NCBI GenBank assembly: GCA_004524725.1
Contig: SDNW01000001.1
Coordinates: 2,213 to 66,212, forward strand
From: Promethearchaeota archaeon
Lineage (GTDB): Archaea > Asgardarchaeota > Lokiarchaeia > Sigyniarchaeales > SOKP01
Length of the DNA stretch: 64,000 nt
Direction of reading: 5' to 3'
Shown here: one piece after another, positions 21,510 through 38,993 of the stretch
Numbering within the stretch: the stretch's first letter is position 1
Layout: the number at the start of each line of letters is the position of its first letter
Position numbers and translations under genes: made by a program
Notes under the pieces: generated by a model
The model's input: the letters and a program-made list of their open reading frames with translations, nothing else
What the model was told of the DNA's origin: nothing
Databases searched by the model: none

Positions 21510-21511
21510 AT

Positions 21512-21970
21512 TTAGACATCTTCCAAATCCAATGATTGAAAACGAGAATATCCTAGCTTAATTAAATCATAATCTAAATATTCTATTTTATTTGGAATTA
21601 TTTTCAAAATAAGATTTCTTTTACCTCGTACAATTTTCTGAGCTTTTTCAAATTCTTGATCTCTTTCTCTCAAAAAAATCAGATTTTTTACTCCCATTGC
21701 GGTAATTTGCATTCCTTGAATTTTTCCGGAATCTAAAGGCGAATAAATACCGATACTAATAATAGGATTTTCTTCGATATTAGTTACTTTTCTTCCGGGA
21801 GCAAGTCCAACATATATATTGTAGTTTTCATCGTTATTTTCCATGTAAAAATCCATAGGAGTAGCACGGGGAATATTATTTGAACATGTACATAGAACTA
21901 GGACTTTTCTCTTTTTTAGAAATTTTCTAATCTCTTCTTCTAGAATAGATTTAGGCATTTTTTTCTTCAA
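21512..21970 (-). CDS. pyridoxamine-5'-phosphate-oxidase-like FMN-binding split-barrel protein (tentative)
   Basis: The size (152 aa) and the pattern KVLVLCT...PRATPMDFY...LAPGRKVTNIEENP resemble the PNPOx-like family. No catalytic assignment is possible. Confidence 0.45.
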   Translation of the reverse strand: MKKKMPKSILEEEIRKFLKKRKVLVLCTCSNNIPRATPMDFYMENNDENYNIYVGLAPGRKVTNIEENPIISIGIYSPLDSGKIQGMQITAMGVKNLIFLRERDQEFEKAQKIVRGKRNLILKIIPNKIEYLDYDLIKLGYSRFQSLDLEDV

Positions 21971-22068
21971 AATAAAGCACCAATTAATATCTAATTTTCA
22001 TCATTAAAAGGGGTTTTGATCGATTTTTAAATCCCCGGTCTTTTAAAGAAAGAATAGGATAAATGAAA

Positions 22069-23205
22069 TCAACGTAAATTACTATTTGGGAAATCGGTAT
22101 TATCTACTGCAGCACGGACATATGGTGAGATTGGTCCTCTTCCCAATGCCATAATCCGTATTTTTGAACCAAGAGAAGGGTTTAAAGCTGTTCCAAATTT
22201 TAATGATGCTTGTTTGGGAATTTCATTAGATATTGTAGAAATGATTTTATCCATCTTTGATAACGATAATTTGTGATCTCCTGAAACGGATACAATACAC
22301 TTATCGATTTTATTAGGATCAGGATCTAAAAGCGGGTTATTTAAGGCTAGATGCGCTTTACTGATTAAATCTTTCTCCTCACCTAATGATTCTGTTATGC
22401 CAATTAGCCCACTCGGATATAACCCAGATTTTTCAAGTACTTTTCTCACATCAGCGTAATCAATATTTATTAAACCACAATTGTTAATTAAATTCAAAAT
22501 TTCTTTTATGCTCCTAATTAACACTTCATCCATTATTTTAAATCCGGATAAAATTGGCAATTTTTCATTAAATTTTAATAAATTATCATTAGGAATGGGG
22601 ATTAATGTGTCGGTATTTTTCACGAGTTCCTTTAACCCCCTTTGAGCTCGTGATCTTCTCTCATTACCTTCTGAAGAAAAAGGTATCGAACAAAACGTAA
22701 CTACCGTTGCGTTATTCTTTTTTGCTTCTCTTGCAATAATGGGGGCTGCTCCCGTTCCAGTTCCTCCACCTAACCCGTATGTTAAAAATACAACATCAGC
22801 ATTCAAAGCCTCGGCTAATCTTTCAGCATCCTCTTCTGCTGCCGTTGCCCCAATTTCAGGATCATTACCTGAACCTAGTCCATTACAAGTTTCCTTCCCA
22901 ATTAATAATTTTTTAGTGGCATTGGAATAATAAAGGTCGTGAGCATCAGTATTAATATTGAGAGTTTCTACACAGTCTGTTTGAAATTCTTGCATTCTTG
23001 ATACTGTATTATTACCCGCTCCTCCAATTCCAACGACTATAGATTTAATTTTGAGGACTTTCAATAAATCAGATAAATATTTATCGCTATCTAAATTTGC
23101 ATTTTGATTATCTATTTTATTTTGACGTGCAATTTCATTAAATCTTGATCGTACCGATAATCGCGAATTTACCACTTTATTTAGATCAAATTCATCGTTT
23201 GTCAT
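22069..23205 (-). CDS. ftsZ: cell-division GTPase FtsZ
   Basis: It has GIGGAGNNTVSRM (G-box 1), the tubulin signature GLGGGTGTGAAPIIA and the T7-loop region NDNLL. Confidence 0.85.
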   Translation of the reverse strand: MTNDEFDLNKVVNSRLSVRSRFNEIARQNKIDNQNANLDSDKYLSDLLKVLKIKSIVVGIGGAGNNTVSRMQEFQTDCVETLNINTDAHDLYYSNATKKLLIGKETCNGLGSGNDPEIGATAAEEDAERLAEALNADVVFLTYGLGGGTGTGAAPIIAREAKKNNATVVTFCSIPFSSEGNERRSRAQRGLKELVKNTDTLIPIPNDNLLKFNEKLPILSGFKIMDEVLIRSIKEILNLINNCGLINIDYADVRKVLEKSGLYPSGLIGITESLGEEKDLISKAHLALNNPLLDPDPNKIDKCIVSVSGDHKLSLSKMDKIISTISNEIPKQASLKFGTALNPSLGSKIRIMALGRGPISPYVRAAVDNTDFPNSNLR

Positions 23206-23672: not shown

Positions 23673-24989
23673 TTAAACATCTAAATCAACTTTGATCGCT
23701 CCATAAGTTCCTCCACCACCAGGAGTATAACTAATCTCGCCATTTCGCATAGCCTCTATTATTTCACCAATGTTTTTATTATAATTTTTGATGGTCTCTG
23801 TGGGTAAATCAATTAAAATTTCATACTCGGGTCCCAATTGAGAAATTATCTTATCATAGGCATTTAAAACAGTCTTGCTAGTGCTACTTTTTATATTTTT
23901 GATTGAGCGAATAATATCGATTAATGGAATTGCATTGATATAGGGAGGACGATGACGGGGATGGGTAGATTTTTTATAGCTAGCGATAATTTCAATTCTT
24001 TCACTAACGCCCAACTTAATTTTATAGTTTTTATTCAATTTTTCCTTACATGCAGGACAGATCATTTTTCCCTTCGCAACAGTATTGATAAAATCCGTTC
24101 GTGCGCTTTTTAAGTCATTAGAATAATACTCAACGAATTCTGGTTTGATGCGGTATTTACTAAAAATCGAGCTAGAAGCCTTATCGGCTTTTTTAAAAAT
24201 TATTCGCCGCCTACATTTATAACAAAACATATTATAGTATTTCCCAAGTTTTGGATGCAAACCTACATTGAGTATAATTTTTCGCGAATTTTTTCTTAGT
24301 AACGCAGATTTTATTTCATCAAAAGAAGGATTATCTATTTCAATTCTGTTAAATTCTCTTCCCAAAGAGCGTGGTGATTGCGAATGAGCATCACTGTTAC
24401 TAAGAAAAGATATATCTTTTAGGCATTCCAAACGATCTGCTAAATTAGTATTCGCTGAAAGTCCCAATTCAATGAATGATACCTTTTTTAGAGCATCTTG
24501 GTAGCAATCTTCCAAATTACTATATTGATTTTGGCGGAAGATTGCTTTGAAAGGAGTAAAAGCGTGTGCGGGACCGATCATACCCCCTAAATCCGTAATT
24601 ATATCTACTAAATCAGCTGGAGTTAAATTAACCCTTGGTCTACCACCCCATTCATCAAATAAATTCTTGGAGTAACTATGGAGCTTTTTTTGAGCTTCAA
24701 CTACGCTTTTAAAATCAGGAAAAAGTACTACATGATGAATATTTTCCTTATCCTCGATTTCAGTTTGTAGGATGAAAAATATGTCATTATATTGATAAGA
24801 ACCATCGCTATTTTTCTGAAGGTTATGCTGCATGTATTTTAACCACTCTGGTTGTAAAATATCGCCAGTTCCTAGGACATGGAGTCCTTTTTGTTTACAG
24901 GTGTCAACCATGGTATCCAAATTCAGAGATTGTGATACTGCGATTGAATGAGGACTATGGATATGAAGGTCGGTATTATAAACTTGCAT
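23673..24989 (-). CDS. endonuclease Q-like PHP-domain nuclease with zinc finger
   Basis: DLHIHSPHS, GTGD, GPAHAFTP, ELGLSA, SNSDAHS, LGREFNR, the internal Cys pairs CYKCRR and CPACK, RPPY and the C-terminal PGGGGTYG are collinear with my recollection of the Pyrococcus EndoQ family. Confidence 0.75.
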   Translation of the reverse strand: MQVYNTDLHIHSPHSIAVSQSLNLDTMVDTCKQKGLHVLGTGDILQPEWLKYMQHNLQKNSDGSYQYNDIFFILQTEIEDKENIHHVVLFPDFKSVVEAQKKLHSYSKNLFDEWGGRPRVNLTPADLVDIITDLGGMIGPAHAFTPFKAIFRQNQYSNLEDCYQDALKKVSFIELGLSANTNLADRLECLKDISFLSNSDAHSQSPRSLGREFNRIEIDNPSFDEIKSALLRKNSRKIILNVGLHPKLGKYYNMFCYKCRRRIIFKKADKASSSIFSKYRIKPEFVEYYSNDLKSARTDFINTVAKGKMICPACKEKLNKNYKIKLGVSERIEIIASYKKSTHPRHRPPYINAIPLIDIIRSIKNIKSSTSKTVLNAYDKIISQLGPEYEILIDLPTETIKNYNKNIGEIIEAMRNGEISYTPGGGGTYGAIKVDLDV

Positions 24990-25049
24990 TAATCTAACAA
25001 TAATTCGATTTCCTTTAAAATTTAATTATTAAAATACTATCAGCTAATT

Positions 25050-26108
25050 TTATCGCAAATTAAGTTTAATTTGACGCCATTTTTTTAGATTTTTAACATC
25101 ATTTAATTTTTCATAGCAACTAATAAGAGTCTCAACAACATCTTGTTCATTCGAATTAAGATTGAATACCTTCTCGTAGTATTCAGCAGCAACGGTAAAG
25201 TTTTTTTTTTGGTATTGTATTTTAGCCACTTTTTTCAGAACATTAATAAATTCTGGATGTAAATCTAGTGCCTTATTGTAATATATCATTGCTTGAGAAT
25301 AATCTTGCAGTAGTTCGTAAGAAAAGCCAAGATTTTCATAAAGAATAGGATCTTTATCATTCAGAGTAAGTGCTTGATTAAAGGATTCAATCGCCTTGCT
25401 GCAATTTTCCTTAAATAAGTAGGATAATCCTATATAATTCCACGCTCTGAGAAGGTAGGGATCAAATTCTAAGGACTTTGAAAAAGAAGCGATAGCTATA
25501 TCATATTCTCTTGTTTCATAGGCAATTTCTCCGAAATCAAACCATAGATCTGGATTATCGGGAGCTAATTCTAATGCTTTTTTATTATAAAATATGGCAT
25601 TTGTGAAATCCTGTAAATCAAAATATATTGAAGCTAAATTATTGTATAATATTGGGTCATCTGGATTAATTTTGATCGCTTTTTCGTAGCTTCTAATTGC
25701 TTTATCATGTTGGTTGAGGTCTTTATAAAGAATTGCCATGTTATTTAGCGCATCGGTATAACTTGGATCAAATTCTAAAGATTTCTTATAGTATTTTAAT
25801 GCTTTATCATATTGTTCTTTCTCTTCATAAGCACAAGCAATATTATAATAAACTACGGCATCCTCAGGATCTAATTTGAGTGCATGAAAATAGGAATCAA
25901 TTGCATCATCTAATTCACCTTTCATCGAATAACTGAGTCCTAAATTATTCCAAATTTCTGAATAATATGGATTAATTTCAAGTGCTTTTTTATAACTATG
26001 TATTGCGTTCTCAAAATCATCTTTATCATAATAAGCATCTCCCAAATTAATCCAACTATCTAAATCATCAGGATCGTGCCTAAGCGATTCTTTAAATCGT
26101 TCGATCAT
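25050..26108 (-). CDS. tetratricopeptide (TPR) repeat protein
   Basis: About ten consecutive 34-aa units have the W/Y-x-N-L-G...A-x-x-Y...A-L-E-x-D/N-P consensus. Confidence 0.85.
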   Translation of the reverse strand: MIERFKESLRHDPDDLDSWINLGDAYYDKDDFENAIHSYKKALEINPYYSEIWNNLGLSYSMKGELDDAIDSYFHALKLDPEDAVVYYNIACAYEEKEQYDKALKYYKKSLEFDPSYTDALNNMAILYKDLNQHDKAIRSYEKAIKINPDDPILYNNLASIYFDLQDFTNAIFYNKKALELAPDNPDLWFDFGEIAYETREYDIAIASFSKSLEFDPYLLRAWNYIGLSYLFKENCSKAIESFNQALTLNDKDPILYENLGFSYELLQDYSQAMIYYNKALDLHPEFINVLKKVAKIQYQKKNFTVAAEYYEKVFNLNSNEQDVVETLISCYEKLNDVKNLKKWRQIKLNLR

Positions 26109-26173
26109 AATTCCTTAATATTAAAAATGCAAAATATCTAAAATCTTTTTGTAAAATCCATATTAATTGATTT

Positions 26174-27229
26174 CTATGGTATAACAATCATTTTATCAGT
26201 AATTTGATTCTCCAACACTATCCGAAAATATTCTTGTTGATGTTTAAATCGCACTTTTTCTAATTTACCATTTATAATGACAGTTTCATCTTCTATAGCT
26301 TGTTCACAATATCTTCCTCTGTAGGAACAGACTTCATTGATTCTTTCTATTCGAATTTTTTGGTCATTAATTGATGAAGATAATATCTTTAATGTTTCGA
26401 TTTTATAATTACAAGGTGTAAAAATAGAATCTGTAGCATCTTTGATTTTTGCTTTCAGATAAATTCTGCCAAGATTTTGAAATTGATAATCATAATAACT
26501 TCCTTTCCAATCTTCAGGGCTTTTAAGATATCTTATAAAAAAGTCAATACCCTTATATTTGCCTTGATGTAATTTTCTCCTTTCGGAGTAAAAAAATTTT
26601 TCATATGGAATATCAGAACCACCTGCACGCCAATTATAGTGTTTGAGATACTCTTGTTTATTATACATCCGACAATTATTTGGAGCTTTAAAAACTTTAT
26701 CTAAAGATTGTTGGAAATCTATACTATTTTTAGTACCATATATTACTAAATCAATATCTGATTCATTTTTATTTAAACCGACCATTTGGGAACCAGTTAT
26801 GCCAATTGCATCATCTGGTATACCTCCCTCCTCAATGAACAATTCGCACAAACCTTTCGAAGCTTTCTCAACTCGGGAGAGATTATTTCTATTATATAAT
26901 GACTTGAAATAGATTCTTGGAGAGTATATCTGTTTAATCTCCTCATTTTTGACTGCCTGTAATTCCAAATCCCATTCTTTAGAAAAAAATAGATATTGGG
27001 GATAATTTGCTTTTAAAAAAGAAGATCTTTCCTTAAGATCATAGATTTTTTTATATTTTGTACCATCCTTAACTCTATCGCCATCTGTACTAGGGTAAAA
27101 TCTAATAAAGCATATTTTTCTGTCATTCGGATGATGTACTCCCTTAACATCGAAAAAAAGGCGGGTTCTTTTAGATTCTATATAATCGCCCTCAATCCCT
27201 ATCGGAATTATCATGGAATTTCTAACCAA
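26174..27229 (-). CDS. predicted Pol-beta-superfamily nucleotidyltransferase with C-terminal beta-rich (OB-like?) domain
   Basis: GITGSQMVGLNKNESDIDLVIYG is the G[SG]-x(n)-DxD minimal NTase motif. The rest is unassigned. Confidence 0.5.
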   Translation of the reverse strand: MVRNSMIIPIGIEGDYIESKRTRLFFDVKGVHHPNDRKICFIRFYPSTDGDRVKDGTKYKKIYDLKERSSFLKANYPQYLFFSKEWDLELQAVKNEEIKQIYSPRIYFKSLYNRNNLSRVEKASKGLCELFIEEGGIPDDAIGITGSQMVGLNKNESDIDLVIYGTKNSIDFQQSLDKVFKAPNNCRMYNKQEYLKHYNWRAGGSDIPYEKFFYSERRKLHQGKYKGIDFFIRYLKSPEDWKGSYYDYQFQNLGRIYLKAKIKDATDSIFTPCNYKIETLKILSSSINDQKIRIERINEVCSYRGRYCEQAIEDETVIINGKLEKVRFKHQQEYFRIVLENQITDKMIVIP

Positions 27230-27237
27230 GAATAGTA

Positions 27238-28344
27238 TTATGAAGGTTTCTTTGATTTTATTTTAAATTTAGGAATATCATTTAATTTTCGTATTTGATT
27301 CTCAAATTCTTTCTTTTCTTTTAAAAATCGTTCTTTATCTCTTTCTAATTTATCTCTCTCTTTCCTAATTGTGTTTTTCTCATCTTCAATGGAAATTTTT
27401 TCCTTTTCAATTTTATCAAAATGATTTTGTAAACTTTTTAATTTATTCTCTAATTCTTTGATATTTCGCTCTAATGAATGATAGAAGCTTTCTGCTTTCG
27501 GAATTTTTTTGTTTAATTCTTTCAGTCTTTTTTCTTCATTTTTTCTGGATGTTTCTAAATTTCTTACCTCATCATCGACTTTGGCTCTAAATTTTTCTAA
27601 GTTTTTTTTTTTCTTATCAATATCACGAGCTTTTAGATCTAAACTTTTTTGCTTATATTTGATTTTATCTTTATATTCCTTTAAACGTCTTTTCTCATCT
27701 TCAATACGATTCCTTTCGTCTATGAGTTCTCTTTTCATATCATTAATCTTTTTATTTAGATTATCCTTCTCTCTCATCAGGTCCTTGATCTCATTTCTTA
27801 AGTCCATTAACTTGTCTTCGTGTTTTTCAATTGTCCTTTCCAAAGCATTTTCTCTTCTTTCCATACCTGGTATTTTTGTCTTAATTTTTTTAATATGATT
27901 TTCTGCTTTGCTTTTTTCTTCTTGTAAATTGGCTTTTTCTTTCTCTAAATCATCTCTAACAGTATTTAACTTATCTTGATATTGTTTTAAATCATTACTC
28001 TTTTGATTTAATTGCTTTTCTTTAATTTGAAGAGAAATTTTATGCTGTTTTATATCGTATCTCATTTTTTCTATATCATTTTTTATCTCATCGCGTTCTT
28101 TTAAGAGTTTTCGAACTTCTATTTCTCTCTCCTTTCTCTTCTTCTCAAGGCTCTCAATATCATCGCCATATTCTTCAATTTTTTTTAGAACTTTTTCCCA
28201 TTCAACTTTTTCTTTAATTAATTTAGCTTGTTCATCTTTTATTTTTTTAAGTAATTTTTGATTTGAACTTGTATCTATATCATTCTGGGGTGTTTTTTCT
28301 CGAATTTGGTATTTAGGAATAGATTTATCGTTCATAATAATCAC
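27238..28344 (-). CDS. K/E-rich coiled-coil protein
   Basis: The 368-aa protein is almost entirely heptad-like charged sequence (EKxxLxxExxKLKxE...). It has no TM segment and no enzymatic motif. Confidence 0.65.
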   Translation of the reverse strand: MIIMNDKSIPKYQIREKTPQNDIDTSSNQKLLKKIKDEQAKLIKEKVEWEKVLKKIEEYGDDIESLEKKRKEREIEVRKLLKERDEIKNDIEKMRYDIKQHKISLQIKEKQLNQKSNDLKQYQDKLNTVRDDLEKEKANLQEEKSKAENHIKKIKTKIPGMERRENALERTIEKHEDKLMDLRNEIKDLMREKDNLNKKINDMKRELIDERNRIEDEKRRLKEYKDKIKYKQKSLDLKARDIDKKKKNLEKFRAKVDDEVRNLETSRKNEEKRLKELNKKIPKAESFYHSLERNIKELENKLKSLQNHFDKIEKEKISIEDEKNTIRKERDKLERDKERFLKEKKEFENQIRKLNDIPKFKIKSKKPS

Positions 28345-28508: not shown

Positions 28509-28928
28509 ATGAATTTTGATGAGGATGAAGATTTGGATGAAGAATTCGAGGAAGATTTTGATGAGGAGTTAGATGAAGATTTGGATGATGAGTTTGAGGA
28601 ATTAAAAAAACCACCTTCCGATGATCTTACAACCAAAACTCCTAAAACTGCAATAACTCCTGAAGCTAAAAAAATATCCGTATATTTGATGTCAACTATA
28701 GGCCCGGGGGAAAAGAAGCAAAAATTATTAATGTATACAGGATACAAGATTAGGGATATCAAGGAGACGGTGGCAAATATCTTCGGTTTAGATCCCGCTG
28801 ATTTTCATTTGTCTACAGGAGGAGTTACTATGGAGGAAGGATTCACGCTGAATGATTATAATGTTGAAGACGGAGATGATATTTTATTAATTCCTGCTAG
28901 CACAGCAGGCATAGTTAGCATATTATAA
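28509..28928 (+). CDS. ubiquitin-like (beta-grasp) modifier precursor with poly-acidic N-terminal extension (UBL1)
   Basis: The C-terminal ~85 aa, KKISVYLMSTIGPGEKKQKLL...DGDDILLIPASTAG-IVSIL, is a paralog of UBL2. The N-terminal ~55 aa is rich in D/E/L/F. Confidence 0.75.
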   Translation: MNFDEDEDLDEEFEEDFDEELDEDLDDEFEELKKPPSDDLTTKTPKTAITPEAKKISVYLMSTIGPGEKKQKLLMYTGYKIRDIKETVANIFGLDPADFHLSTGGVTMEEGFTLNDYNVEDGDDILLIPASTAGIVSIL

Positions 28929-28961
28929 TTAGCAAAGACTCTTCCATATAAAATTAAGATA

Positions 28962-29741
28962 TTATTTTTTATTTCGTGGAATTAAAGCAATTTCATCATC
29001 ATCATCAATATTATAGTCCCTTACTAGGGAATCTTCACGTAATAATATTCCGCCAGTGGAGAGTAAAAAATCATCAAGATCATATCCAAAAAATATTGAT
29101 ATTTTTTCTTTTAGCTCTTTAATGAATTCTGAAGATTCAATTATTAAAATTTTAGTTTTCTCTCCAGGCTCCACTAAGGATCTCACATAGACGCGTATTT
29201 TATCTTGCATTCCAATTTTCATTTGAGGAGGATAATATACAACCTTTTCATCATTCTCTGCTTCCAACATGGATTCAATTAAATCTTTCCTTTCCTCGGC
29301 ATTATAATATAATAATTCTCTGAGAAAAAATATCTTATCCATTTTAGATAAATTTAACAGTTCTATCCTATCTAACTCTTCTGGATTGAATAATGAGAAA
29401 ATAAACTCATGAAGTTTTGGAATTTCTTCATATGAATCATCTGAAGTAGCATAATTATCAATTATAGGCATTGCTTCGAAATAATCATTTATAAAAGCGC
29501 CATAGTTTCCCTTAAACGTTCTTTTTTTAAAAGGGACTTTCTTCTTTAAAATTAGCTCATCAGGTTTTTTAGTTTCTATGATCGTATAGAGAGTAAAACT
29601 AGGTACAGCAATTACGCTACTAATAATAAGGATCGATTTTAGAAGGATATTATCAATTTTAAAGAATATAAAAATAAGATAGAGAAGAATAAAAAAAAGA
29701 TATAATATGGCTGTTCCAAATAATAAATATTTGTTTTTCAT
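28962..29741 (-). CDS. membrane-anchored protein (2 N-terminal TM helices) with C-terminal ubiquitin-like domain lacking a terminal Gly (UBL3)
   Basis: The C-terminus, DKIRVYVRSLVEPGEKTKILII...FGYDLDDFLLSTGGILL...DDDDEIALIPRNKK, aligns residue-for-residue with UBL1 and UBL2 but ends RNKK. The N-terminal hydrophobic helices are YLLFGTAILYLFFILLYLIFIFF and ILIISSVIAVPSFTLYTII. Confidence 0.7.
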   Translation of the reverse strand: MKNKYLLFGTAILYLFFILLYLIFIFFKIDNILLKSILIISSVIAVPSFTLYTIIETKKPDELILKKKVPFKKRTFKGNYGAFINDYFEAMPIIDNYATSDDSYEEIPKLHEFIFSLFNPEELDRIELLNLSKMDKIFFLRELLYYNAEERKDLIESMLEAENDEKVVYYPPQMKIGMQDKIRVYVRSLVEPGEKTKILIIESSEFIKELKEKISIFFGYDLDDFLLSTGGILLREDSLVRDYNIDDDDEIALIPRNKK

Positions 29742-29823
29742 AATTTTAATAATGCCTTCTTCTAAATTTTAAATGTTAAATTCATAATTTAAATTCCATT
29801 GGAATAAATTTGCAAATTCTCTT

Positions 29824-30495
29824 CTATTCCTCATTTATAAAATTTCTAACCTCAAAAAATTTATCTTCGTTTAAGCTAAATAATAGTTTTTTATTTTGCT
29901 TTTTTACGTTAATTAGTTTTAAACTTTGTAAAATCTTAAGATACTTTTTTATAGTATTATAATTTTTTTTCAACCTATTTGCAATTTCGGTTATTTTAAA
30001 GTCTTTTTTTTCCTCCAGCATGAAATTTATTATTTCTTTAATGAAATTCTGTCTTAAGTAGAAATAAAGTTCATCAAATTCTGGATTTAAATCAGAATTA
30101 AAGAACACCCTTTGATTATCAAATTTTCTAGATCGGACAAATTGAAATTTTTCTAAACAAGATAGATGCCATAGAGCCTGATTACTTCCAATGTCTATGG
30201 CGTTCATAATTTCATTAATGTTTGATGGAGTTTGCTTAATTAAATTAAAAATTTCATTTCTTACTGGATGTTCGATTATATTATTTTTCATTAATTTAGT
30301 CCCAGGTATAAGGATTCTTCTTTTGATAAGTTTTTTTATTATTTTTTCGATCTTATTTTTATTTATATCTGGGTTTAACTTTACTCTATTATTAATGAAC
30401 ACTACAATATCCTCTATTGAGAAGAAAGGTTTCTTTTTTAAGTATTCTTCAATTAATTCAAAAACAATATATTCAGCATTATTAGGAGAATTCAT
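29824..30495 (-). CDS. winged-HTH (ArsR-like) transcriptional regulator, probably two wHTH units
   Basis: RNEIFNLIKQTPSNINEIMNAIDIGSNQALWHLSCLEKFQFVRSRK is ArsR-like. A second similar unit is ITEIANRLKKNYNTIKKYLKILQSLKLI. Confidence 0.6.
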   Translation of the reverse strand: MNSPNNAEYIVFELIEEYLKKKPFFSIEDIVVFINNRVKLNPDINKNKIEKIIKKLIKRRILIPGTKLMKNNIIEHPVRNEIFNLIKQTPSNINEIMNAIDIGSNQALWHLSCLEKFQFVRSRKFDNQRVFFNSDLNPEFDELYFYLRQNFIKEIINFMLEEKKDFKITEIANRLKKNYNTIKKYLKILQSLKLINVKKQNKKLLFSLNEDKFFEVRNFINEE

Positions 30496-30747
30496 AAGAG
30501 TATACTTCTATGAGATTGAATGAAATTAACTTGTTAATCATTTCTTTAGTCTTAAATGATATCTCTCAATTAATATTATTTACTAACGATTTATTCAATT
30601 TATAAGTATATTTTCTAAAATTAATAAGGACATTATTATCTTAATTTATGAAATTTCAAAATTATGCCAATTGGTTTTATAATATCATTTTAGCATGTTT
30701 TTAGTAAGTTTAAAAATAAACTATTAAAAAAAAAGGAAGTGAATTAA

Positions 30748-31083
30748 ATGAGTTTTGAAAATGATTTTGATGAGGAATTAGAACCTTTAAAGTCTAAAAC
30801 GCCTACAAGTAAAACGCCTTCGGCAGGAAAGAAATTGACTCTATACTTTATGTCAACTATAGGTCCCGGTGAAAAGAAAGAAAAGTTAACTGTAAATGAC
30901 GCAAATCAAGTCAGTGATATAAAACAAACATTAGGAAACCTATATGGACTTGATCCTAATGAATTTCATTTATCTTCTGGTGGAGTTACCATGGAAGAAA
31001 ATAATCAATTAAAAGATTATAATGTAAACGATGGAGACGACATTCTATTGATTCCTGCGAGTACAGCGGGTAGACTTATATAA
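30748..31083 (+). CDS. ubiquitin-like (beta-grasp) modifier precursor (UBL2)
   Basis: KKLTLYFMSTIGPGEKKEKLTV...LYGLDPNEFHLSSGGVTMEE...DGDDILLIPASTAG-RLI. It is the first gene of the co-directional UBL-E1-E2-JAMM-RING run. GGAAGTGA lies 5 nt before the ATG. Confidence 0.8.
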   Translation: MSFENDFDEELEPLKSKTPTSKTPSAGKKLTLYFMSTIGPGEKKEKLTVNDANQVSDIKQTLGNLYGLDPNEFHLSSGGVTMEENNQLKDYNVNDGDDILLIPASTAGRLI

Positions 31084-31148
31084 TTTTCTATATAATTTAT
31101 AATTAGAAGGCACATGTCCTTCATTTATTTTTTTTATTAATAATTAAG

Positions 31149-32381
31149 GTGATAAGATTGGATAAACATTCAGATTTTTTTGCTAGAGAATTAACAGTGG
31201 AGGAACGAGAACTGTATGACCGCCAATTTCGTCTTGAGGGTTGGTCACAAAAGGTTGTAAAAAATTCGAGAGTACTTATTGTAGGTGTAGGAGGGTTAGG
31301 CTGTGAAATTGCAAAAAATTTAGCGATGTTAGGTGTGGGTCATCTCGATCTTGTTGATTTAGATATTATTGAACATTCTAATTTAAACCGTCAAATACTT
31401 TTTACTGGAGCTCAAATTGGAGAGTCAAAAGCGATTGTAGCAGCACGAACATTAAAGGATATAAATCCAAATATTATTATTAAAGGTTATTTTACCTCTC
31501 TAGAACGATTAAAACCTGAGATATATCAAGCTGCTGATGTCGTGGTTGGAGGTCTTGACTCAATGAATGCACGTTTAAACTTAAATTCCCAATGTATAAG
31601 ATTTAGAAAACCTTTAGTCGATGGAGGAGTATCTGGTTATCATGGACATTTCTATACGGTACTTCCCTATAAAAATGCTTGTTATGAGTGCAACCCATTG
31701 CCTATTGGTGAAAGTGATGAGATGGCAGCTTGTACTGTAGTTGGAATTCCTCGAAAAAGAATACATTGTGTTTTTAAAGGGGATATGGCTTTTAAAGAAA
31801 AATTTGATAGAGATCCAAATCCAAAAGATATGAATGATATTAAATATATTCAAAAGGTTGCGAATGAATTTGTTAATAAATATAATTTCTTACCAGAATA
31901 TACTGAAGATGATATCGTAAAAATTATAGATAGACATGATCCGGGAATAATTACAATTAATGCAGTTATATCTGCCTTCCAGTCTCATGAGACTGTAAAA
32001 ATTATTCATTGGAAGCAAGGACATAAAGGATTAGGACAACCCATAAAGGATTATGTAATCTTTAATGGTATTACAATGAAAATGTATCATATTGAAAAAA
32101 CAAGGAACCCAGAATGCTCTCAATGTGGAAAAAATGTTCGACGTGTCATTATAAAAATGAAACCAGATTCACTTTGCATGAATATTATAAAAATTTTAAC
32201 AAGGCATGGATATAAATTAGAGGAGGATTTTGAACCTGTGATTACACTATTGGATTTCAATGATATACAAGTTGTTGATTTAGAAAAGACCTTTATAGAA
32301 AATGAATTGCGTAATTTAGAATTTTTAACGATAGCTGGGTTTAAAGGTGGAGAAATTTATGTAACTCTAAAATTAAAATGA
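31149..32381 (+). CDS. E1-like ubiquitin-activating enzyme (ThiF/MoeB/UBA adenylation domain plus C-terminal extension)
   Basis: The protein has YDRQFRLEGW, the nucleotide loop VLIVGVGGLGCEIAKNL, DLDIIEHSNLNRQILF, the zinc pairs CYEC and CSQCG, and the candidate catalytic Cys in MAACTVVG. The track's GTG at 31149 lies inside a GGTGA motif, so TTG 31158 is an alternative start. Confidence 0.85.
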   Translation: MIRLDKHSDFFARELTVEERELYDRQFRLEGWSQKVVKNSRVLIVGVGGLGCEIAKNLAMLGVGHLDLVDLDIIEHSNLNRQILFTGAQIGESKAIVAARTLKDINPNIIIKGYFTSLERLKPEIYQAADVVVGGLDSMNARLNLNSQCIRFRKPLVDGGVSGYHGHFYTVLPYKNACYECNPLPIGESDEMAACTVVGIPRKRIHCVFKGDMAFKEKFDRDPNPKDMNDIKYIQKVANEFVNKYNFLPEYTEDDIVKIIDRHDPGIITINAVISAFQSHETVKIIHWKQGHKGLGQPIKDYVIFNGITMKMYHIEKTRNPECSQCGKNVRRVIIKMKPDSLCMNIIKILTRHGYKLEEDFEPVITLLDFNDIQVVDLEKTFIENELRNLEFLTIAGFKGGEIYVTLKLK

Positions 32382-32463: not shown

Positions 32464-32991
32464 ATGAGTATAAGAAGTAGTCGTATTTCCCGAGATTTTG
32501 CGGGCTTAAAAAAAATGTTAAAGAATGGATCTATAGTGCAATTAAAACCATTTAATCCAAATAAAAAAAGTATTGACCACTTAGCTATTACTATTAAGGG
32601 TCCAAAAGGCACAGCTTATGCAGGGGGTATCTTTAAACTAGAGATGAAATTCCCTGCTCAGTATCCTAAGCAACCGCCATATGTAAGACTTCATACCCCT
32701 ATTTGGCATCCAAATTTTTGGCCTAAACCAAGTGAATATAAAGGACAAAGAAATATATGCTTAGCATTGGTTGATCCTTCTTTGGTTGGTAAAAAAGGAG
32801 GTTGGAGTCCATCGAAAACAGCGGTCACTGTAGTACAAGCAATAATTGCTATGTTAAATACACGAGGAAAATATGTAAATCCAACAGATGTATTTAATAA
32901 AAAGGCAGCGATTGAAATGATCAAGGATCAAAAATTCTTTGAGAAAAAGGTCAAAAACCTAGTAAAGAAGTATGCAAATGAAAAGTGGTGA
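32464..32991 (+). CDS. E2 ubiquitin-conjugating enzyme (UBC fold)
   Basis: GGIFKLEMKFPAQYPKQPPYVRLHTPIWHPNF carries the HPN motif. It is followed by the catalytic Cys99 in RNICLALV (TGC at 32758..32760). Confidence 0.85.
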   Translation: MSIRSSRISRDFAGLKKMLKNGSIVQLKPFNPNKKSIDHLAITIKGPKGTAYAGGIFKLEMKFPAQYPKQPPYVRLHTPIWHPNFWPKPSEYKGQRNICLALVDPSLVGKKGGWSPSKTAVTVVQAIIAMLNTRGKYVNPTDVFNKKAAIEMIKDQKFFEKKVKNLVKKYANEKW

Positions 32992-32997
32992 AATATT

Positions 32998-33804
32998 ATG
33001 AAAAATGATGAAATCGCAAATGACCCAATTAGAGAAGCGATAAAACAAAAAATCAAAGCGAAAATCAAAAATGAATTACTTAAAGAAATATATTCAGAAT
33101 TACAATTAGAAGAAGAAATAACGGACGAGATAGCAAGTGAAATAATAAATGAACCTATCTTAGAGCATACAGAGTTTAATAAAGCTAATCTGGAGCCGAT
33201 TCCCTCGGAGATCATTAAAACCTCTTCGGGAAATGGTAAAAGTAAATCACCTATTATCATAAATGTAAAATCTTTTCTTAAGATTGCTAGTCATGCGTTA
33301 AAATATGCGCATTCAAAAATTCCGAGAGAAAGTTGGGTAGAAGTCATAGGGCTACTCGCTGGAAAAATTGATAAAGTTCATGATATTTTACTTGTTGAAG
33401 ACGTTTATCCAATGGGTCATGGAAATGCCGTATATGCTGAAATTAAAGACTATAAAAATTATGTAAGAGCATTTAAAGATATTAAAAAAAGTAGTTTGTT
33501 TATTTGTGGATGGTATCACTCTCATCCATCTTATGGATGTTTTATGTCTAAGGAGGATTTAGGTACCCAATCTAGATATCAGGCGTTATGGGACAAAGCA
33601 ATAGCACTTGTGATTGATCCTTATCAGATAAATGGAAAATCTATGGGTTTTGAAATTTATCGTGCGAACATTAAAAAAAGACAATGGTTTTCTGTACCCT
33701 TCGAGATTAAGGGAAATATAGATGTGCGAATGTTACCTGAAATTTTGGAGTTCATGAACCCCATTATTGAGGGGAAGGCTGCTTATTTAGAATATGATGA
33801 ATAA
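32998..33804 (+). CDS. JAB1/MPN/Mov34 (JAMM) metalloprotease, Rpn11-like deubiquitinase/UBL-processing enzyme
   Basis: The upstream Glu is in ESWVEVIGLLAG, and the JAMM motif is GWYHSHPSYGCFMSKED (HxH-x7-S-x2-D). GGTGA overlaps the E2 stop, 6 nt before the ATG. Confidence 0.85.
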   Translation: MKNDEIANDPIREAIKQKIKAKIKNELLKEIYSELQLEEEITDEIASEIINEPILEHTEFNKANLEPIPSEIIKTSSGNGKSKSPIIINVKSFLKIASHALKYAHSKIPRESWVEVIGLLAGKIDKVHDILLVEDVYPMGHGNAVYAEIKDYKNYVRAFKDIKKSSLFICGWYHSHPSYGCFMSKEDLGTQSRYQALWDKAIALVIDPYQINGKSMGFEIYRANIKKRQWFSVPFEIKGNIDVRMLPEILEFMNPIIEGKAAYLEYDE

Positions 33805-33824: not shown

Positions 33825-34964
33825 ATGCTAAAAAAGAAATATCTAATAATATTTTTTTTTATATTAATTGGTTCTATCCATGGATTAATCTCAATTTCAC
33901 TAAATATCTTTTTAACTTGGGTATTTATCGGTTTATGGTTATTTTTCATAATAAAAGTTTTCGAAAACATTAAACAGCATCGTGAATTCAATTCCCCTTA
34001 CAATACCGCATTTTTTGTTATTCTGCCTCTATTTATTGGAATTTTTTATTCCATTTGGGGTTCCTATACGAGTTTATTGGGAGAAAATCTCATTATGGAC
34101 TCTAATTTCTATTTTAGTTTATGGAGTTTAATATTTGGACTTCCATTTGTTTTATATGGATCTTATTCATTATATCGTTGCTTTAAAAGATATAATGTGA
34201 TCTATTTTGGGAGAAGAGCCGTAAAAGCTAAAGTTGTAGGATATTTATTATCTTTCTTCATAATTTTTGGTATTATTCTTTATTGGATAATCTTTTACTC
34301 TATTTCGGAGTTATATAATTCTATATTAATACCATTTCGCTTCTCTTTAGATATAAATATTTTACTTTTATTTATTCTAACTATTTTAAATTTAATCATA
34401 TTTGGTTTTTTGAATACACAAAGACAATTATCTCCTTTAACTCGTGAATATATCACACAACGTACTCGAAGAATAAATTCTTTGACAAGACCTAGTAACC
34501 AAAATCAGAGAGTACAAACAACTAATCGATCTAGTCCTCCCTTATCCAGAACAGAGCCCCGATCAAGTCGTGCTTCTTATCATTCATCAAGAGTCACTTC
34601 AGCACCTCACAGCCACAAAACGAGAACGCCCAAAAATAGTCAAACGCAAAAAACTAAAACTAGTCATAAAATTCAAAATATAAATATTTATAAGCCTAAA
34701 GCAGCGTTTCTGACAGAAGAAGATTTCAAATGCATTTTCTGTTTTAAATTGCCTAAATTTCCAGAAGATAAAGGAAGAGGAATCATTTTATGTCCTAATT
34801 GTAGGTACCCTTCCCATGCAGATGAGTTTAAAGACTGGTTGAAAACTTCTAATTTGTGTTCTCGTTGTAGCGCACCTATTCCCCTTAATTTTAGGAGAAA
34901 TCCAAGAATTATTAGCATCAAAAATTATATTACTATCTATAGACGAATTTTAAAAATAAAATGA
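33825..34964 (+). CDS. polytopic membrane protein (~6 TM) with S/T/R/P/Q-rich linker and C-terminal RING-like zinc finger (candidate E3)
   Basis: Six hydrophobic helices are followed by the low-complexity stretch RPSNQNQRVQTTNRSSPPLSRTEPRSSRASYHSSRVTSAPHSHKTRTPKNSQTQKTKTSHK. The C-terminal finger is CIFC-x17-CPNC-x4-H-x13-CSRC (34731..34868). Confidence 0.6.
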   Translation: MLKKKYLIIFFFILIGSIHGLISISLNIFLTWVFIGLWLFFIIKVFENIKQHREFNSPYNTAFFVILPLFIGIFYSIWGSYTSLLGENLIMDSNFYFSLWSLIFGLPFVLYGSYSLYRCFKRYNVIYFGRRAVKAKVVGYLLSFFIIFGIILYWIIFYSISELYNSILIPFRFSLDINILLLFILTILNLIIFGFLNTQRQLSPLTREYITQRTRRINSLTRPSNQNQRVQTTNRSSPPLSRTEPRSSRASYHSSRVTSAPHSHKTRTPKNSQTQKTKTSHKIQNINIYKPKAAFLTEEDFKCIFCFKLPKFPEDKGRGIILCPNCRYPSHADEFKDWLKTSNLCSRCSAPIPLNFRRNPRIISIKNYITIYRRILKIK

Positions 34965-34979: not shown

Positions 34980-35939
34980 CTATCTACTTTTTCCAATAAT
35001 TCTTCTTAATTCTCCGATAGTTGTTTTTAATTCTGAATATACATTATGGGGGTGAATGGATTCATAGCTTTCAATCGAAAATTTAATTTTACAATGATCC
35101 TCCAAATTTGGAAAATCGCTTAAGATAAAATTCTTTGCCATTTGCCTAACGACATCTTCAGAAAAGAGTGGATTTAGATGAGCAGTTCGCACGAGCTTTG
35201 CCTCTTCTGGTCTTTTTAAAACAGATTGCATTTTACCAGACATCGAGCCCTCAATTATATCAATTATATCTAAAACATCAATTTTATGATTGTTTAAATC
35301 TTTAATTTGAACAATGATAGTTCCTTTTGATCGTTGATTGTGAGAGCTAAAAGGTAAGATATTTAAAAGTTTCTTAATATCTTCTTCTCGCAAATTGATA
35401 TCCCTTCTATTTTTAATTATTTCTTCGGCATATTCTTGACTCATTTCTTTTGCGCAAGGACATACAGTCATACCTACAGCACTGGCACCGATATAATAAT
35501 TAAAATCAATTTCTCCAGATACGTTTTTAAAAGCTTTTACAAATGAACTGATCTTATATGACTTTTGGATATTTCTTTGTTGTTCATCTTTAGTTTGGAC
35601 CACTATTTTTCCTTCAAGTTTTACATGGACTTTTTTTGTATAGGGATGTTTTTTAAGAAGTTCTCGTGCTATTCTATCTCCTACAACTTCTACGGAGGGT
35701 GTTGGCTTGAAAATAACCTCATTTATAATTTCTTCAATTGTTTCAGAGGTGCGAGACATATGTATCCCTCGTTGTTTGGCAGGCAGAGAGATCAGAGCAG
35801 AGATCTTAGGATAAAAGGAATAGCGTTTATTTTCTTGAATGATATCGACTTTTTTTTCGACCCCTACGATTCCAACTTTATCAATCGGAATGTCGACTTT
35901 TGAGCCAGAATTCTGTAAATCTTTTTTAAAATGGCTAAT
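34980..35939 (-). CDS. mptA: GTP cyclohydrolase IV (MptA/FolE2 family)
   Basis: GMTVCPCAKEMS is present. Family-conserved N-terminal sequence (DIPIDKVGIVGVEK...LPAKQRGIHMSR) continues in frame upstream of the track's ATG at 35759 up to a TGA at 35948..35946. The only plausible initiator there is ATT 35939..35937 (see findings). Confidence 0.7.
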   Translation of the reverse strand: MSHFKKDLQNSGSKVDIPIDKVGIVGVEKKVDIIQENKRYSFYPKISALISLPAKQRGIHMSRTSETIEEIINEVIFKPTPSVEVVGDRIARELLKKHPYTKKVHVKLEGKIVVQTKDEQQRNIQKSYKISSFVKAFKNVSGEIDFNYYIGASAVGMTVCPCAKEMSQEYAEEIIKNRRDINLREEDIKKLLNILPFSSHNQRSKGTIIVQIKDLNNHKIDVLDIIDIIEGSMSGKMQSVLKRPEEAKLVRTAHLNPLFSEDVVRQMAKNFILSDFPNLEDHCKIKFSIESYESIHPHNVYSELKTTIGELRRIIGKSR

Positions 35940-36077
35940 TAAGTATCACGAACTTATATTAATTTTCCTATTTAATAAAAGTAGATATCTAATATAAAAA
36001 ATATTAATGACTAAGTTTGTTCTATTAAAGTTTAGAATTTAATTTATAAAACTATCATGCTTGTCTGATTTAGAAAA

Positions 36078-37247
36078 ATGGCGCAAAAGCATCTTTATTG
36101 TCGATTTGGGTTAATTGGAGAGAATTTAGAATTAAAACAAAATGTGAATCTATATTTCGACGAGGAAGGAATAATTACTGATTTTAAATTTGAAGAGATT
36201 GACACAGATATTACTCTTGATAGAATGCAAGAAAACTATCTTGTAATTCCTGGATTAATTAATTCTCATACTCATATAGGAGATAGTTTTGCTAAAGAAA
36301 AAGGTCACAATAAAGAATTAATTGAAGTGGTAAGTCCTCCTAATGGTATTAAACATCAACTATTACGTGAAACTGCTGAATCCGAAAAAATCAAGGGAAT
36401 AAAGTCCGCTATCCAGGAAATGATTTCGAATGGAATTACATATTTTATGGATTTCAGAGAAAATGGTGTCAAGGGGATTGAATCATTACAAAAAGCATTG
36501 AGAAATGAAAGCATTAGATGTTTAATCTTCGGACGATTTAATCAATTAGATGAAGTAAAAAAAGTTTTTAATAAATCAGATGGGATTGGACTATCTAGTT
36601 ATCATCAGCTTTCTGAAGAGTTAAAGACTGAACTTAGAACTATGAAATCATTTTCAAGTAAAAAATTAGCTTGTCATGTTGCTGAACTTAATCATGAGGA
36701 TTTTCTTTTTAAACAGATAATGGATGATGCTTTAGTAGATATAATGATCCATGGAACTCAATTAGAATCTAACGAGTTACGAAAAATTAAACAAAACAAT
36801 ATTAAACTAGTATTATGTCCGAGGAGTAATGGATATTTTGGACTTGGATATCCTCCTGTAAAAGACTTATTGGAACTAAGCATTCCCATTTCGCTAGGGA
36901 CTGATAATGTTATGGTTAATAATTTAAATTTATTTGAAGAAATGCGATATTTATATTATATTGCGAAAAACCAAATTAGAGATGATAAATCAATCAAAAT
37001 AATTGCTAAAAATATTTTTAAAATGGTAACTATTAACGCTGCAAAAAATTTTTATATTGAATCAAAGGTAGGCTCAATATCTTTGGGTAAGCTGGCTGAT
37101 TTAGTTATTATTAATTTAAATGATCCAAATTATTATTTTAATAATTTAGATAGAGATGGGTTTTTTTCATTACTTCTTCATAGGACTAATGGAAGGAATA
37201 TCAAAAGAGTATATATTGGAGGAAAATGTATATATGAAGGTAAATGA
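36078..37247 (+). CDS. metal-dependent amidohydrolase (chlorohydrolase/deaminase-like, TIM-barrel)
   Basis: It has PGLINSHTHIGDS (HxH metal site), an internal H (ACHVAE) and the late motif GTDN. The substrate is unknown. Confidence 0.7.
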   Translation: MAQKHLYCRFGLIGENLELKQNVNLYFDEEGIITDFKFEEIDTDITLDRMQENYLVIPGLINSHTHIGDSFAKEKGHNKELIEVVSPPNGIKHQLLRETAESEKIKGIKSAIQEMISNGITYFMDFRENGVKGIESLQKALRNESIRCLIFGRFNQLDEVKKVFNKSDGIGLSSYHQLSEELKTELRTMKSFSSKKLACHVAELNHEDFLFKQIMDDALVDIMIHGTQLESNELRKIKQNNIKLVLCPRSNGYFGLGYPPVKDLLELSIPISLGTDNVMVNNLNLFEEMRYLYYIAKNQIRDDKSIKIIAKNIFKMVTINAAKNFYIESKVGSISLGKLADLVIINLNDPNYYFNNLDRDGFFSLLLHRTNGRNIKRVYIGGKCIYEGK

Positions 37248-37902
37248 TAAGCCTTATATTATTTTAAGTGCCGCTATGACCATAGATGGAAAAATCGCCT
37301 CTAAACAAGGCGATACAGAGATATCTGATGATGAAGATTGGAAAGAAGTACATAAACTCAGAACCAAAGTTGATGCAATAATGGTTGGGAAAAATACCAT
37401 ATTAATCGATAATCCAAAACTTCATATCAAATTTTATTCGCATTCTGGTTATTATCGCATTATTGTAGATAGTAATTTAACGATACCAATAAACTCAAAT
37501 GTCATTACATATCAACCTGAAATATATCCAACAATCATTTGTACTACTGAGAAAGTTCCTATTGACAAAATAAATGAATATAAATCAAAAAATGTTAATG
37601 TTATTACTTCTGGCGATACTAAGCGTGTAAATATTAATTTTTTATTACCCAAGTTATATCAAATGGGTATTAGGTCAATCCTGTTAGAAGGGGGAGGAAA
37701 TCTAAATTGGAGTTTTATAAAAGAGAATTTAGTAGATGAAATAAGACTGACAATTGCTCCTTGGATTATTGGAGGAGAAGATGCGATTACCTTGGTTGAA
37801 GGAGAGGGTTTCTTACGCATGAAGGATGCACCCGGGTATCATTTATCTAAAGTTAAAACAAGAAAGAATTATCTTAAATTAAAATATTTAAAAGTAAAAT
37901 GA
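37234..37902 (+). CDS. 2,5-diamino-6-ribosylamino-4(3H)-pyrimidinone 5'-phosphate reductase (RibD C-terminal-domain family)
   Basis: YIILSAAMTIDGKIAS, VDAIMVGKNT and ILLEGGGNLNWSF are present. ATG 37234 is preferred to the track's 37156, because the 26 extra residues overlap the previous gene. Confidence 0.75.
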   Translation: MKVNDKPYIILSAAMTIDGKIASKQGDTEISDDEDWKEVHKLRTKVDAIMVGKNTILIDNPKLHIKFYSHSGYYRIIVDSNLTIPINSNVITYQPEIYPTIICTTEKVPIDKINEYKSKNVNVITSGDTKRVNINFLLPKLYQMGIRSILLEGGGNLNWSFIKENLVDEIRLTIAPWIIGGEDAITLVEGEGFLRMKDAPGYHLSKVKTRKNYLKLKYLKVK

Positions 37903-38987: not shown

Positions 38988-38993
38988 AGAAAA

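Follow-up and report, generated by a model that had tools for sequence, protein, structure and literature searches.

Ubiquitin-type modifiers with a conserved Ala-Gly end and sporadic C-terminal tails in the ubiquitin region of Loki-type archaea

A stretch of 64,000 nucleotides from a Promethearchaeota archaeon (assembly GCA_004524725.1, contig SDNW01000001.1, positions 2,213 to 66,212; this whole stretch is called the window) encodes two paralogous proteins which, according to their sequences and structural models, are ubiquitin-type modifiers. They are named UBL1 and UBL2 here (UBL, ubiquitin-like protein). Ala-Gly, and not Gly-Gly, is the selected and, as predicted from the orthologues, mature reactive terminus of the Loki-type family to which they belong. 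Both proteins of the window carry a few residues past the Gly. We consider it probable that these are modifiers ending in Ala-Gly, that their tails arose by stop-codon loss and are likely clipped by the JAMM protease of the same gene cassette, and that the N-terminal extension is part of the mature tag. The two genes and their C-terminal arms are located as follows.

28509..28928, + strand: UBL1 gene, ubiquitin-type modifier, the paralogue with the long acidic extension, 139 amino acids (aa), assigned by open reading frame, Pfam and AlphaFold2
28896..28910, + strand: UBL1 C-terminal arm A-S-T-A-G (residues 130-134); Ala codon GCA at 28905-07, predicted reactive Gly codon GGC at 28908-28910
30748..31083, + strand: UBL2 gene, ubiquitin-type modifier directly upstream of the gene for the activating enzyme (E1), 111 aa
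31057..31071, + strand: UBL2 C-terminal arm A-S-T-A-G (residues 104-108); Ala codon GCG at 31066-68, predicted reactive Gly codon GGT at 31069-31071

UBL1 ends in ...DILLIPASTAG-IVSIL and UBL2 in ...DILLIPASTAG-RLI, each followed by the stop codon. The open reading frames, termini and Gly codon positions given in a preliminary description of this DNA were exact on re-reading of the sequence.

Conservation of the Ala-Gly terminus

The comparison comprises 279 family proteins, namely the 120 closest UBL2 clusters and the 120 closest UBL1 clusters (together the 240 close homologues) as well as 39 representatives at 50% identity. The residue before the terminal Gly (P2) is Ala in 279/279 of these proteins, and the end IP-x-S-x-A-G is found in 240/240 close homologues and in 39/39 family members among the 50%-identity representatives. 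The UBL2 clusters all read IPASTAG except for one IPSSTAG, the UBL1 clusters all read IPAS[T/V/I]AG. Such conservation is far more than chance would give. Each of the four Ala codons and each of the four Gly codons is used at this end, which indicates selection on the protein rather than on its DNA. The preliminary description had proposed Ala-Gly rather than Gly-Gly as the conserved end, and the alignment of orthologues agrees with it without exception among the 279 retrieved proteins.

The window stems from a metagenome-assembled genome (MAG), and AT-rich homopolymers can cause insertions and deletions; the Ala-Gly end or the tails might thus be suspected to be sequencing errors or otherwise artefacts of assembly or annotation. 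However, identical Ala-Gly termini occur in hundreds of independent assemblies (JGI, ENA, NCBI, Logan), which effectively excludes a Gly-Gly end, and the same RLI tail occurs in at least 10 separate clusters. We give practically no credence to an artefact, and the Ala-Gly end first noticed in this DNA is almost certainly no sequencing error.

In 101/139 genes the stop codon comes straight past the Gly. A scan of species-representative genomes, in which an alignment of eight closer sequences served as query, gave 236 related stretches; the best 80 of them were examined as loci and belong without exception to MAGs of Loki type, which go by various names. The eight-sequence query biases these 80 loci towards Loki-type genomes, and the taxonomic range of the family is not bounded by them. 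Among the species-representative genomes, no tail is present in 44/65 genes of the UBL2 type and in 45/57 of the UBL1 type, or about 70-80% of the orthologues. As most orthologues stop exactly at this Gly, it would be the mature reactive end, and the earlier view of the terminal Gly as the acceptor end is in line with these counts.

A third, membrane-tethered UBL paralogue of the cassette shares 35% of its residues with UBL2 as far as L-I-P. In 57/57 orthologues it keeps the fold through LIP, lacks Ala-Gly and ends in a basic S-R-K-x-K tail, so that the motif is confined to those paralogues which are expected to have a free end for conjugation.

Fold and register of the two modifiers

UBL2 has a 100% identical counterpart in a Promethearchaeota MAG. 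UBL1 and UBL2 are 54% identical to each other (E 2e-44). UBL2 matches the Pfam ubiquitin family (PF00240, cut-off 25.4 bits) with 31.8 bits and an E-value of 1.2e-7, whereas UBL1 stays below the cut-off with 20.7 bits. AlphaFold2 models, which were built with the family alignments, show a confident beta-grasp fold for residues 29-103 of UBL2 and 55-129 of UBL1, mostly with a predicted local distance difference test (pLDDT) above 90. The residues past the Gly are of low confidence and unstructured in both models. A Foldseek comparison of the UBL2 model with the PDB gave the ubiquitin of Caldiarchaeum subterraneum (6fno_D, CsUb) as the top match, followed by ubiquitin, ISG15 and NEDD8, and the target-normalised TM-scores (template modelling scores) of the top matches are 0.77-0.88.

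BLASTP places V70 of human ubiquitin on I102 of UBL2. It follows that ubiquitin R72/L73/R74/G75/G76 correspond to A104/S105/T106/A107/G108 and that the arm of UBL2 past the last strand is of the same length as that of ubiquitin. The arm I-P-x-S-x-A-G equals ubiquitin L71-G76 in length, is uncharged and has Ala in place of Gly75. With Ala-Gly as the terminus in 279/279 family members, UBL1 and UBL2 are to be classed as ubiquitin-like modifiers with a variant end, not as ubiquitin proper. A Gly-Gly ubiquitin was not found within the 64-kb window.

Origin of the C-terminal tails

The residues past the Gly are encoded by the following segments.

28911..28925, + strand: UBL1 extra tail IVSIL, not conserved; 45/57 species orthologues have a stop codon here
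31072..31080, + strand: UBL2 extra tail RLI (AGA CTT ATA), read from conserved intergenic DNA between UBL2 and the E1 gene

Tails are 1-9 residues long across the homologues and 1-7 in the species-representative genomes, and their sequences are unrelated between lineages (YF, K, KLI, RLI, CFE, TFK, KINRNI and others). The first tail codon is one substitution away from a stop codon in 30/38 cases, against a background of 0.35 derived from codon usage (binomial test, P = 4e-8). Behind UBL2, an intergenic sequence is conserved between species. At this place UBL2 genes without a tail have GGx TAG ACT TAT A… or GGx TAA ACT TAT ATA A… (TAGACTTATA.../TAAACTTATATAA...), while in the window and its closest relatives the sequence is GGT AGA CTT ATA TAA, which is the tail-less sequence minus the T of the stop codon. 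A deletion of this one nucleotide, the T of an ancestral TAG or TAA stop, turns TAGACTTATATAA into AGA CTT ATA TAA. RLI is therefore translated former intergenic DNA. It is found in at least 10 separate clusters of closest relatives (P0001-P0010). To judge from these alignments, the RLI and KLI tails come from a 1-nucleotide deletion into conserved intergenic DNA, and the tails in general are evidently sporadic accidents of stop-codon loss tolerated by the system, not conserved pro-peptides.

The intergenic DNA between UBL2 and the E1 gene (…ACTTATATAATTTTCTTCATAAATTATAAT…, 31072..31148 in the window, and the same region in the 80 loci L001-L080) is conserved at the nucleotide level across species and contains TATA-box-like elements about 65-75 nucleotides upstream of the E1 start. 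It may be a putative promoter for the E1, the conjugating enzyme (E2) and JAMM. The RLI codons overlap this putative promoter region.

The tails had earlier been taken to imply obligatory processing, i.e. a programmed pro-peptide which caps the modifier until JAMM licenses it in a required regulatory step. It is true that both UBLs of this genome carry residues beyond the Gly, and with these in place removal would be needed before an E1 could adenylate it. RLI-type tails also recur in the closest relatives (P0001-P0010), and CsUb (PMC5654768) as well as the Helarchaeial ubiquitin (bioRxiv 10.1101/2023.07.25.550441) are likewise made with tails. However, most genes of the family are tail-less and JAMM is kept regardless, the tails are unrelated between lineages and enriched in codons one step from a stop, and the DNA that encodes RLI is conserved in tail-less species too, where it is non-coding and intergenic. 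A pro-peptide is thus unlikely, and of the earlier claim there stands that both genes of this genome carry extra residues which would have to be removed.

A different question is if the tailed UBLs are dead-end alleles, which cannot be activated here and act as non-covalent ubiquitin-like domains only, or are decaying. Untrimmed CsUb is refractory to its E1 until the Rpn11 homologue CsRpn11 removes a tail of 9 residues (PMC5654768, PMC6043591), and by this analogy the tailed forms of the window would not be activatable by E1 either. Besides, loss of a stop codon is a mutational accident, and the cassette already holds a non-conjugatable UBL paralogue. This paralogue, though, lost Ala-Gly altogether, whereas the tailed alleles keep the rest of the protein, the IPASTAG arm included, over many independent assemblies and lineages. 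Both paralogues, E1, E2 and JAMM are moreover intact in the window. We find dead-end alleles quite improbable.

According to the reading that we prefer, the gene would in most species stop right past the Gly and the protein would be made ready for use. In this genome a 1-nucleotide deletion (UBL2) or another loss of the stop codon (UBL1) would have added 3 and 5 surplus residues, respectively, which would be clipped before E1 adenylates the Gly. The likeliest clipper would be the JAMM of the cassette, whose conserved jobs would be the removal of the tag from its targets and, in related lineages, the cutting of precursors with two or three UBL units at their STAG junctions. The N-terminal extension, made up of acidic F/L-D-E repeats followed by KSKTP...G-K-K, would stay on the mature tag and would not be a leader peptide.

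The JAMM protease and poly-UBL precursors

The metal motif of JAMM reads EVIG...HSHPSYGCFMSKED (pattern E...HxHx7Sx2D), as read directly, and the best PDB match of the protein is the Rpn11 homologue of C. subterraneum (6fjv, 7e-17). JAMM is present in 59/59 complete cassettes, and 34 of them are without a tail on either UBL. Its conserved function must therefore be something other than the trimming of tails; most plausibly it is deconjugation, and trimming would be a side benefit. Since JAMM is the only protease of the cassette, it is the best candidate for the trimming. The preliminary description had named it as the presumed processing enzyme. The intact motif and CsRpn11 as the nearest solved relative fit this assignment; the 34 tail-free cassettes show that processing is no obligatory feature of the family.

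Genes with two or three UBL units are found in related lineages at the UBL2 position, directly upstream of the E1, E2 and JAB genes (L081 10001-10690; L083 2960-3697). Three units are present in P0241, P0391 and P0392, two in P0242 and P0393-P0400, all at the same operon position. Each internal unit ends in …IPxSTAG, and the acidic extension of the next unit comes immediately after. In view of this layout, cleavage after Ala-Gly must be expected to occur somewhere in the family. The poly-UBLs are the strongest in-silico evidence for a peptidase which would cut after Ala-Gly with little selectivity for the following residue. With such low selectivity stop-loss tails could persist harmlessly. 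UBL1 and UBL2 of the window are single units and not head-to-tail repeats.

The two units of P0397 are almost the same in sequence, and no residue follows the Gly of the last one. JGI labels the poly-UBLs as 'molybdopterin converting factor small subunit', a name that seems to be wrong and finds no support in the cassette context.

The N-terminal extensions

Both modifiers carry an extension in front of the beta-grasp domain.

28509..28670, + strand: UBL1 N-terminal extension (residues 1-54), four-residue repeats of D/E/F/L, then KTP motifs
30748..30831, + strand: UBL2 N-terminal extension (residues 1-28), MSFENDFDEELEPLKSKTPTSKTPSAGK, disordered and strongly conserved; S-A-G at 30820-30828

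The extensions are unstructured in the AlphaFold2 models (pLDDT of 50-69 for UBL2 residues 1-28 and below 50 for UBL1 residues 1-50). Tandem Repeats Finder detects a 12-nucleotide unit (GGATGAAGATTT) 5.5 times at 28523-28588 in UBL1, and periods of 24 and 36 nucleotides reach 28601. The extensions had been described before as about 55 and 28 aa long, with a nucleotide repeat in UBL1. Both are present with 54 and 28 aa, and the repeat is real (28523-28601). A second short tandem repeat of UBL1, AAAACTCCT three times at 28635..28661, encodes K-T-P motifs, and K-[ST]-K-T-P is the most conserved element common to the extensions of both paralogues. It is pure speculation that the TP sites could be phosphorylation sites.

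The extension of UBL1 is kept across the 120 orthologue clusters with a varying number of repeats. Its pattern is a variable number of [FL]-D-E-[DE] repeats, then …KTP…E-G-K-K, and that of the UBL2 type is MSF-[DE]-x-DFDEELEP-x-KSKTP-x-SKTP-S-x-G-[KR]-K. Little or no variation is seen at F3, D8, E9, K17-T18-P19, G27 and K29 across the two paralogue families. Every unit of the polyproteins has its own extension, which argues that the extension belongs to the modifier unit and is not a leader. We infer that it is retained in the mature tag.

S-A-G in the extension of UBL2 resembles the C-terminal T-A-G and had been proposed, as a speculation, to be a second cleavage site. Maturation would then involve two cuts, one behind the C-terminal Ala-Gly and one behind the N-terminal S-A-G, just in front of K-K and strand beta-1, and would free the acidic extension or activate the tag. 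The Gly two residues before strand beta-1 (G of G-K-K) is indeed nearly invariant (at least 90%) and is often preceded by Ala or Ser, with PSAGK in 25/120 of the UBL2 type and SAG or GAG in many di-UBL units. Its P2 residue is however T, A, S or G in the UBL2 type and Glu in about 85% of the UBL1 type, in contrast to the C-terminal Ala in 279/279, and UBL1 of the window reads E-A-K-K at this site and has no Gly at all. The site lies furthermore in a disordered segment. It has no folded UBL upstream which an Rpn11-type enzyme could grip as in the CsRpn11-CsUb complex (PMC6043591), and this weighs against cleavage there. Finally, the extension is under strong purifying selection in every unit, the internal units of polyproteins included. 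On these sequences a second cut at S-A-G27 is unsupported, and we regard two-site maturation as very improbable.

The gene cassette and its surroundings

The cassette of the window contains the following further genes.

28962..29741, - strand: membrane protein with C-terminal UBL domain, 35% identical to UBL2, ends LIP-RNKK; predicted to be a non-conjugatable paralogue
29824..30495, - strand: winged-helix (ArsR/TrmB-like) protein, syntenic in the cassette
31149..32381, + strand: E1-like activating enzyme (ThiF domain); ThiF 4e-59, closest solved relatives Uba1, UBA3 and SAE2
32464..32991, + strand: E2-like conjugating enzyme; UQ_con 4e-26, HPN...C motif present
32998..33804, + strand: Rpn11-like JAB/MPN+ metalloprotease (JAMM); JAB 1e-13, E...HSHPSYGCFMSKED motif intact
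33825..34964, + strand: polytopic membrane protein with a C-terminal Cys-rich zinc-ribbon or RING-like module, 379 aa; weak candidate for a ligase (E3)

The E1 aligns to UBA3 over residues 36-353. Of the features of the Caldiarchaeum/Asgard-type operon, a modifier, a ThiF E1, an E2 with UBC fold and an Rpn11-like JAMM with intact site are present; for the small RING-finger E3 there is a weak candidate, the 379-aa membrane protein. A discrete "Ub region" of Lokiarchaeota was catalogued by Hatano et al. (PMC9192718), and the cassette of the window is this known region.

Gene order is kept in about 60 species-level genomes (80 loci) as PHP, (TPR), nucleotidyltransferase, coiled-coil, UBL1, membrane-UBL, winged-helix, UBL2, E1, E2, JAMM, membrane zinc-finger and FolE2. 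The membrane-UBL has N-terminal hydrophobic helices and is always located between UBL1 and the winged-helix gene. Four genes upstream of UBL1 (23673..28344, - strand) are co-conserved with it in most species. They encode a PHP-like phosphoesterase with a weak zinc module like the C-terminal domain of RIG-I, a TPR protein which is absent in some species, a protein with nucleotidyltransferase fold and a Lys/Glu-rich coiled-coil protein of 368 aa. Further upstream (17948..23205) AlaRS, a PNPOx-like protein and FtsZ are encoded, and downstream (34980..40118) a FolE2-type GTP cyclohydrolase, an amidohydrolase, RibD_C and two radical-SAM (CofG/CofH-like) genes. This is an ordinary chromosomal setting, in which nothing suggests a mobile element. 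An Rfam scan of the window gave no match.

The 379-aa protein has hydrophobic segments which look transmembrane by eye, a linker rich in Ser/Thr/Arg/Pro and a C-terminal module of the form CxxC-x17-CxxC-x4-H-x13-CxxC. Its Pfam matches are all below threshold (Zn_ribbon_15 0.015, zf-RING_16 0.088, Prok-RING_1 0.34). If it is the E3, conjugation would happen at the membrane.

Additional UBL2-like genes of the Ala-Gly type, with no E1, E2 or JAMM within 10 kb, are found at 14/80 species-level loci (L022, L031, L034, L040, L056, L057, L062, L063, L065-L067, L069, L072, L073). Accordingly, many Loki-type genomes carry a third free modifier elsewhere on the chromosome. Four 50%-identity representatives (P0245, P0256, P0276, P0244) are large and unrelated proteins (180-570 aa) that terminate in a UBL domain of the Ala-Gly type; by eye, one of them looks P-loop-like and one vWA-like. 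If these are real and not mis-called reading frames, whole proteins could be conjugated via their own UBL end. On one metagenome contig an apparent fusion of UBL2 and E1 is encoded (P0404, 534 aa), in which the LLIPASTAG end is lost past …GDDII and the frame runs into the E1. In all likelihood it is no true fusion but the product of a frameshift or of faulty assembly.

Weighing of the reading and its implications

Several points weigh against a working Ala-Gly pathway as proposed above. From the genes alone we infer the activation of the Ala-Gly end by E1, the cleavage behind it by JAMM and the conjugation to targets. The characterised relatives of this JAMM and this E1, i.e. those acting on CsUb and the Helarchaeial ubiquitin, all act on Gly-Gly ends, and in eukaryotic cascades a residue other than Gly at position 75 of ubiquitin blocks the transfer from E2 to E3 (PMC3731359). 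JAMM is equally conserved where there is no tail to trim and is as such not specific evidence for trimming; another cellular peptidase could take off 3-5 C-terminal residues as well. The assignment of the 379-aa membrane protein as E3 is weak, and the proposed retention of the N-terminal extension relies only on conservation and on the layout of the polyproteins.

A more far-reaching idea is that the Ala-Gly modifiers form a separate pathway. The P2 Ala together with the uncharged A-S-T-A-G arm would then be a specificity code which co-evolved with the own E1, E2 and JAMM and insulates them from Gly-Gly systems (of the Urm1/SAMP type, or Gly-Gly ubiquitin where present), and the N-terminal extension would be a functional module. 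We hold this for possible but doubtful. If it is true, the extension could be a handle for receptor binding or for engagement by an unfoldase, as are the disordered part of Pup and the N-terminus of SUMO, and a fixed di-glycine would not have been necessary in the ancestor of ubiquitin.

To our knowledge, all modifiers for which a passage through an E1 of the Uba1/UBA3 type, a UBC E2 and an Rpn11-type JAMM has been demonstrated end in Gly-Gly, including those of two archaeal systems reconstituted in vitro. The lineage-wide invariant Ala-Gly indicates that enzymes of this architecture do not necessarily require di-glycine, and the family is a natural test case for how P2 is read by the pockets of E1, E2, E3 and JAMM. 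Loki-type archaea are now culturable. Proteomics based on K-epsilon-GG remnants and on search settings for Gly-Gly would miss conjugates of these modifiers; the last Lys/Arg before the end of UBL2 is K89, so that trypsin would leave a remnant of 19 residues. Recombinant constructs should end in ...STAG and not at the annotated end of the full-length reading frame. The origin of the tails by stop loss also cautions against taking every "pro-ubiquitin" tail for a regulatory device.

Comparison with known systems

For the Ala-Gly end and the conserved N-terminal extension no earlier description was found, with incomplete coverage of subscription journals and of the supplements to Lokiarchaeota genomes, and both features appear to be undescribed. 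The Loki terminus is not mentioned in PMC9192718 or bioRxiv 10.1101/2023.07.25.550441. Four PDB entries named 'putative ubiquitin' (8HM1-3, 8YPT), which were suspected to be of Asgard origin, are Bacteroides ubiquitin homologues and irrelevant here.

A single terminal Gly is not unprecedented in itself. UFM1, ATG8 and ATG12 expose a single Gly, and the contrast to Gly-Gly-ended modifiers drawn in the preliminary description, which is correct for the Ala-Gly end as such, was too strong in this respect. These three proteins use non-canonical E1s, E2s and Cys proteases, and the UFM1 precursor has a tail of 2 residues which is removed by a dedicated protease. By inspection, UFM1 (...IIPRDRVG) and the present family (...LIPASTAG) have the same spacing from Pro to Gly. 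The systems differ in that the E2 is here a standard UQ_con protein and the protease a JAMM metalloenzyme, not a Cys protease. A kinship with UFM1, to which the single Gly, a short tail and this spacing had pointed, was rejected, as BLASTP of UBL2 against human UFM1 gave an E-value of 0.14 with a misaligned register and UFM1 is absent from the top 50 fold matches. So was a UFM1-type E1, as the E1 of the window is nearer to UBA3/Uba1 (1e-36) than to UBA5 (5e-17) or ATG7 (1e-8). Modifiers of the SAMP/MoaD/ThiS/Urm1 type were also considered and dismissed; UBL1 and UBL2 have no ThiS or MoaD match at E < 0.1, an E2 is present and the end is Ala-Gly.

SUMO is a conjugatable beta-grasp protein and keeps its flexible N-terminal extension on maturation. 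Its end is Gly-Gly, and the extension is shorter than the present ones and has no sequence relation to them. A weak Rad60-SLD match (22.6 bits) in the window is below the Pfam cut-off of 23.8 bits.

Eukaryotic ubiquitin and NEDD8 have the same fold and an arm of equal length past strand beta-5 at an identity of about 21%. The arm is A-S-T-A-G here and R-L-R-G-G in ubiquitin, and the Ala at the position of ubiquitin R72 matches Ala72 of NEDD8 (PMC3731359). In phage display, eukaryotic E1s strongly prefer Gly75 and accept Ser, while the later steps are less tolerant (PMC3731359). A P2 Ala is therefore chemically plausible but implies co-adapted downstream enzymes. Ubiquitin is without the conserved disordered extension which each Loki-type unit carries. 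The head-to-tail poly-UBL precursors of the relatives resemble polyubiquitin.

The ESCRT-linked Helarchaeial ubiquitin, for which E1, E2 and a RING E3 were reconstituted in vitro, has a pro-form with the 4-residue tail SPKN (bioRxiv 10.1101/2023.07.25.550441). It ends in di-glycine, in contrast to Ala-Gly in every member of the Loki-type family examined. Most similar is the C. subterraneum operon (CsUb, E1, E2, the RING E3 srfp and CsRpn11), in which as in the present cassette a modifier is encoded together with E1, E2 and an Rpn11-like JAMM; among PDB entries, UBL2 matches CsUb best by fold, and the best match of JAMM is CsRpn11. However, CsUb has Gly-Gly followed by 9 residues and no long N-terminal extension, whereas the Loki-type proteins have Ala-Gly and only sporadic tails. 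Unlike C. subterraneum, the Loki-type cassette encodes two free paralogues plus a membrane-tethered one, and its candidate E3, with a weak RING assignment, is a polytopic membrane protein.

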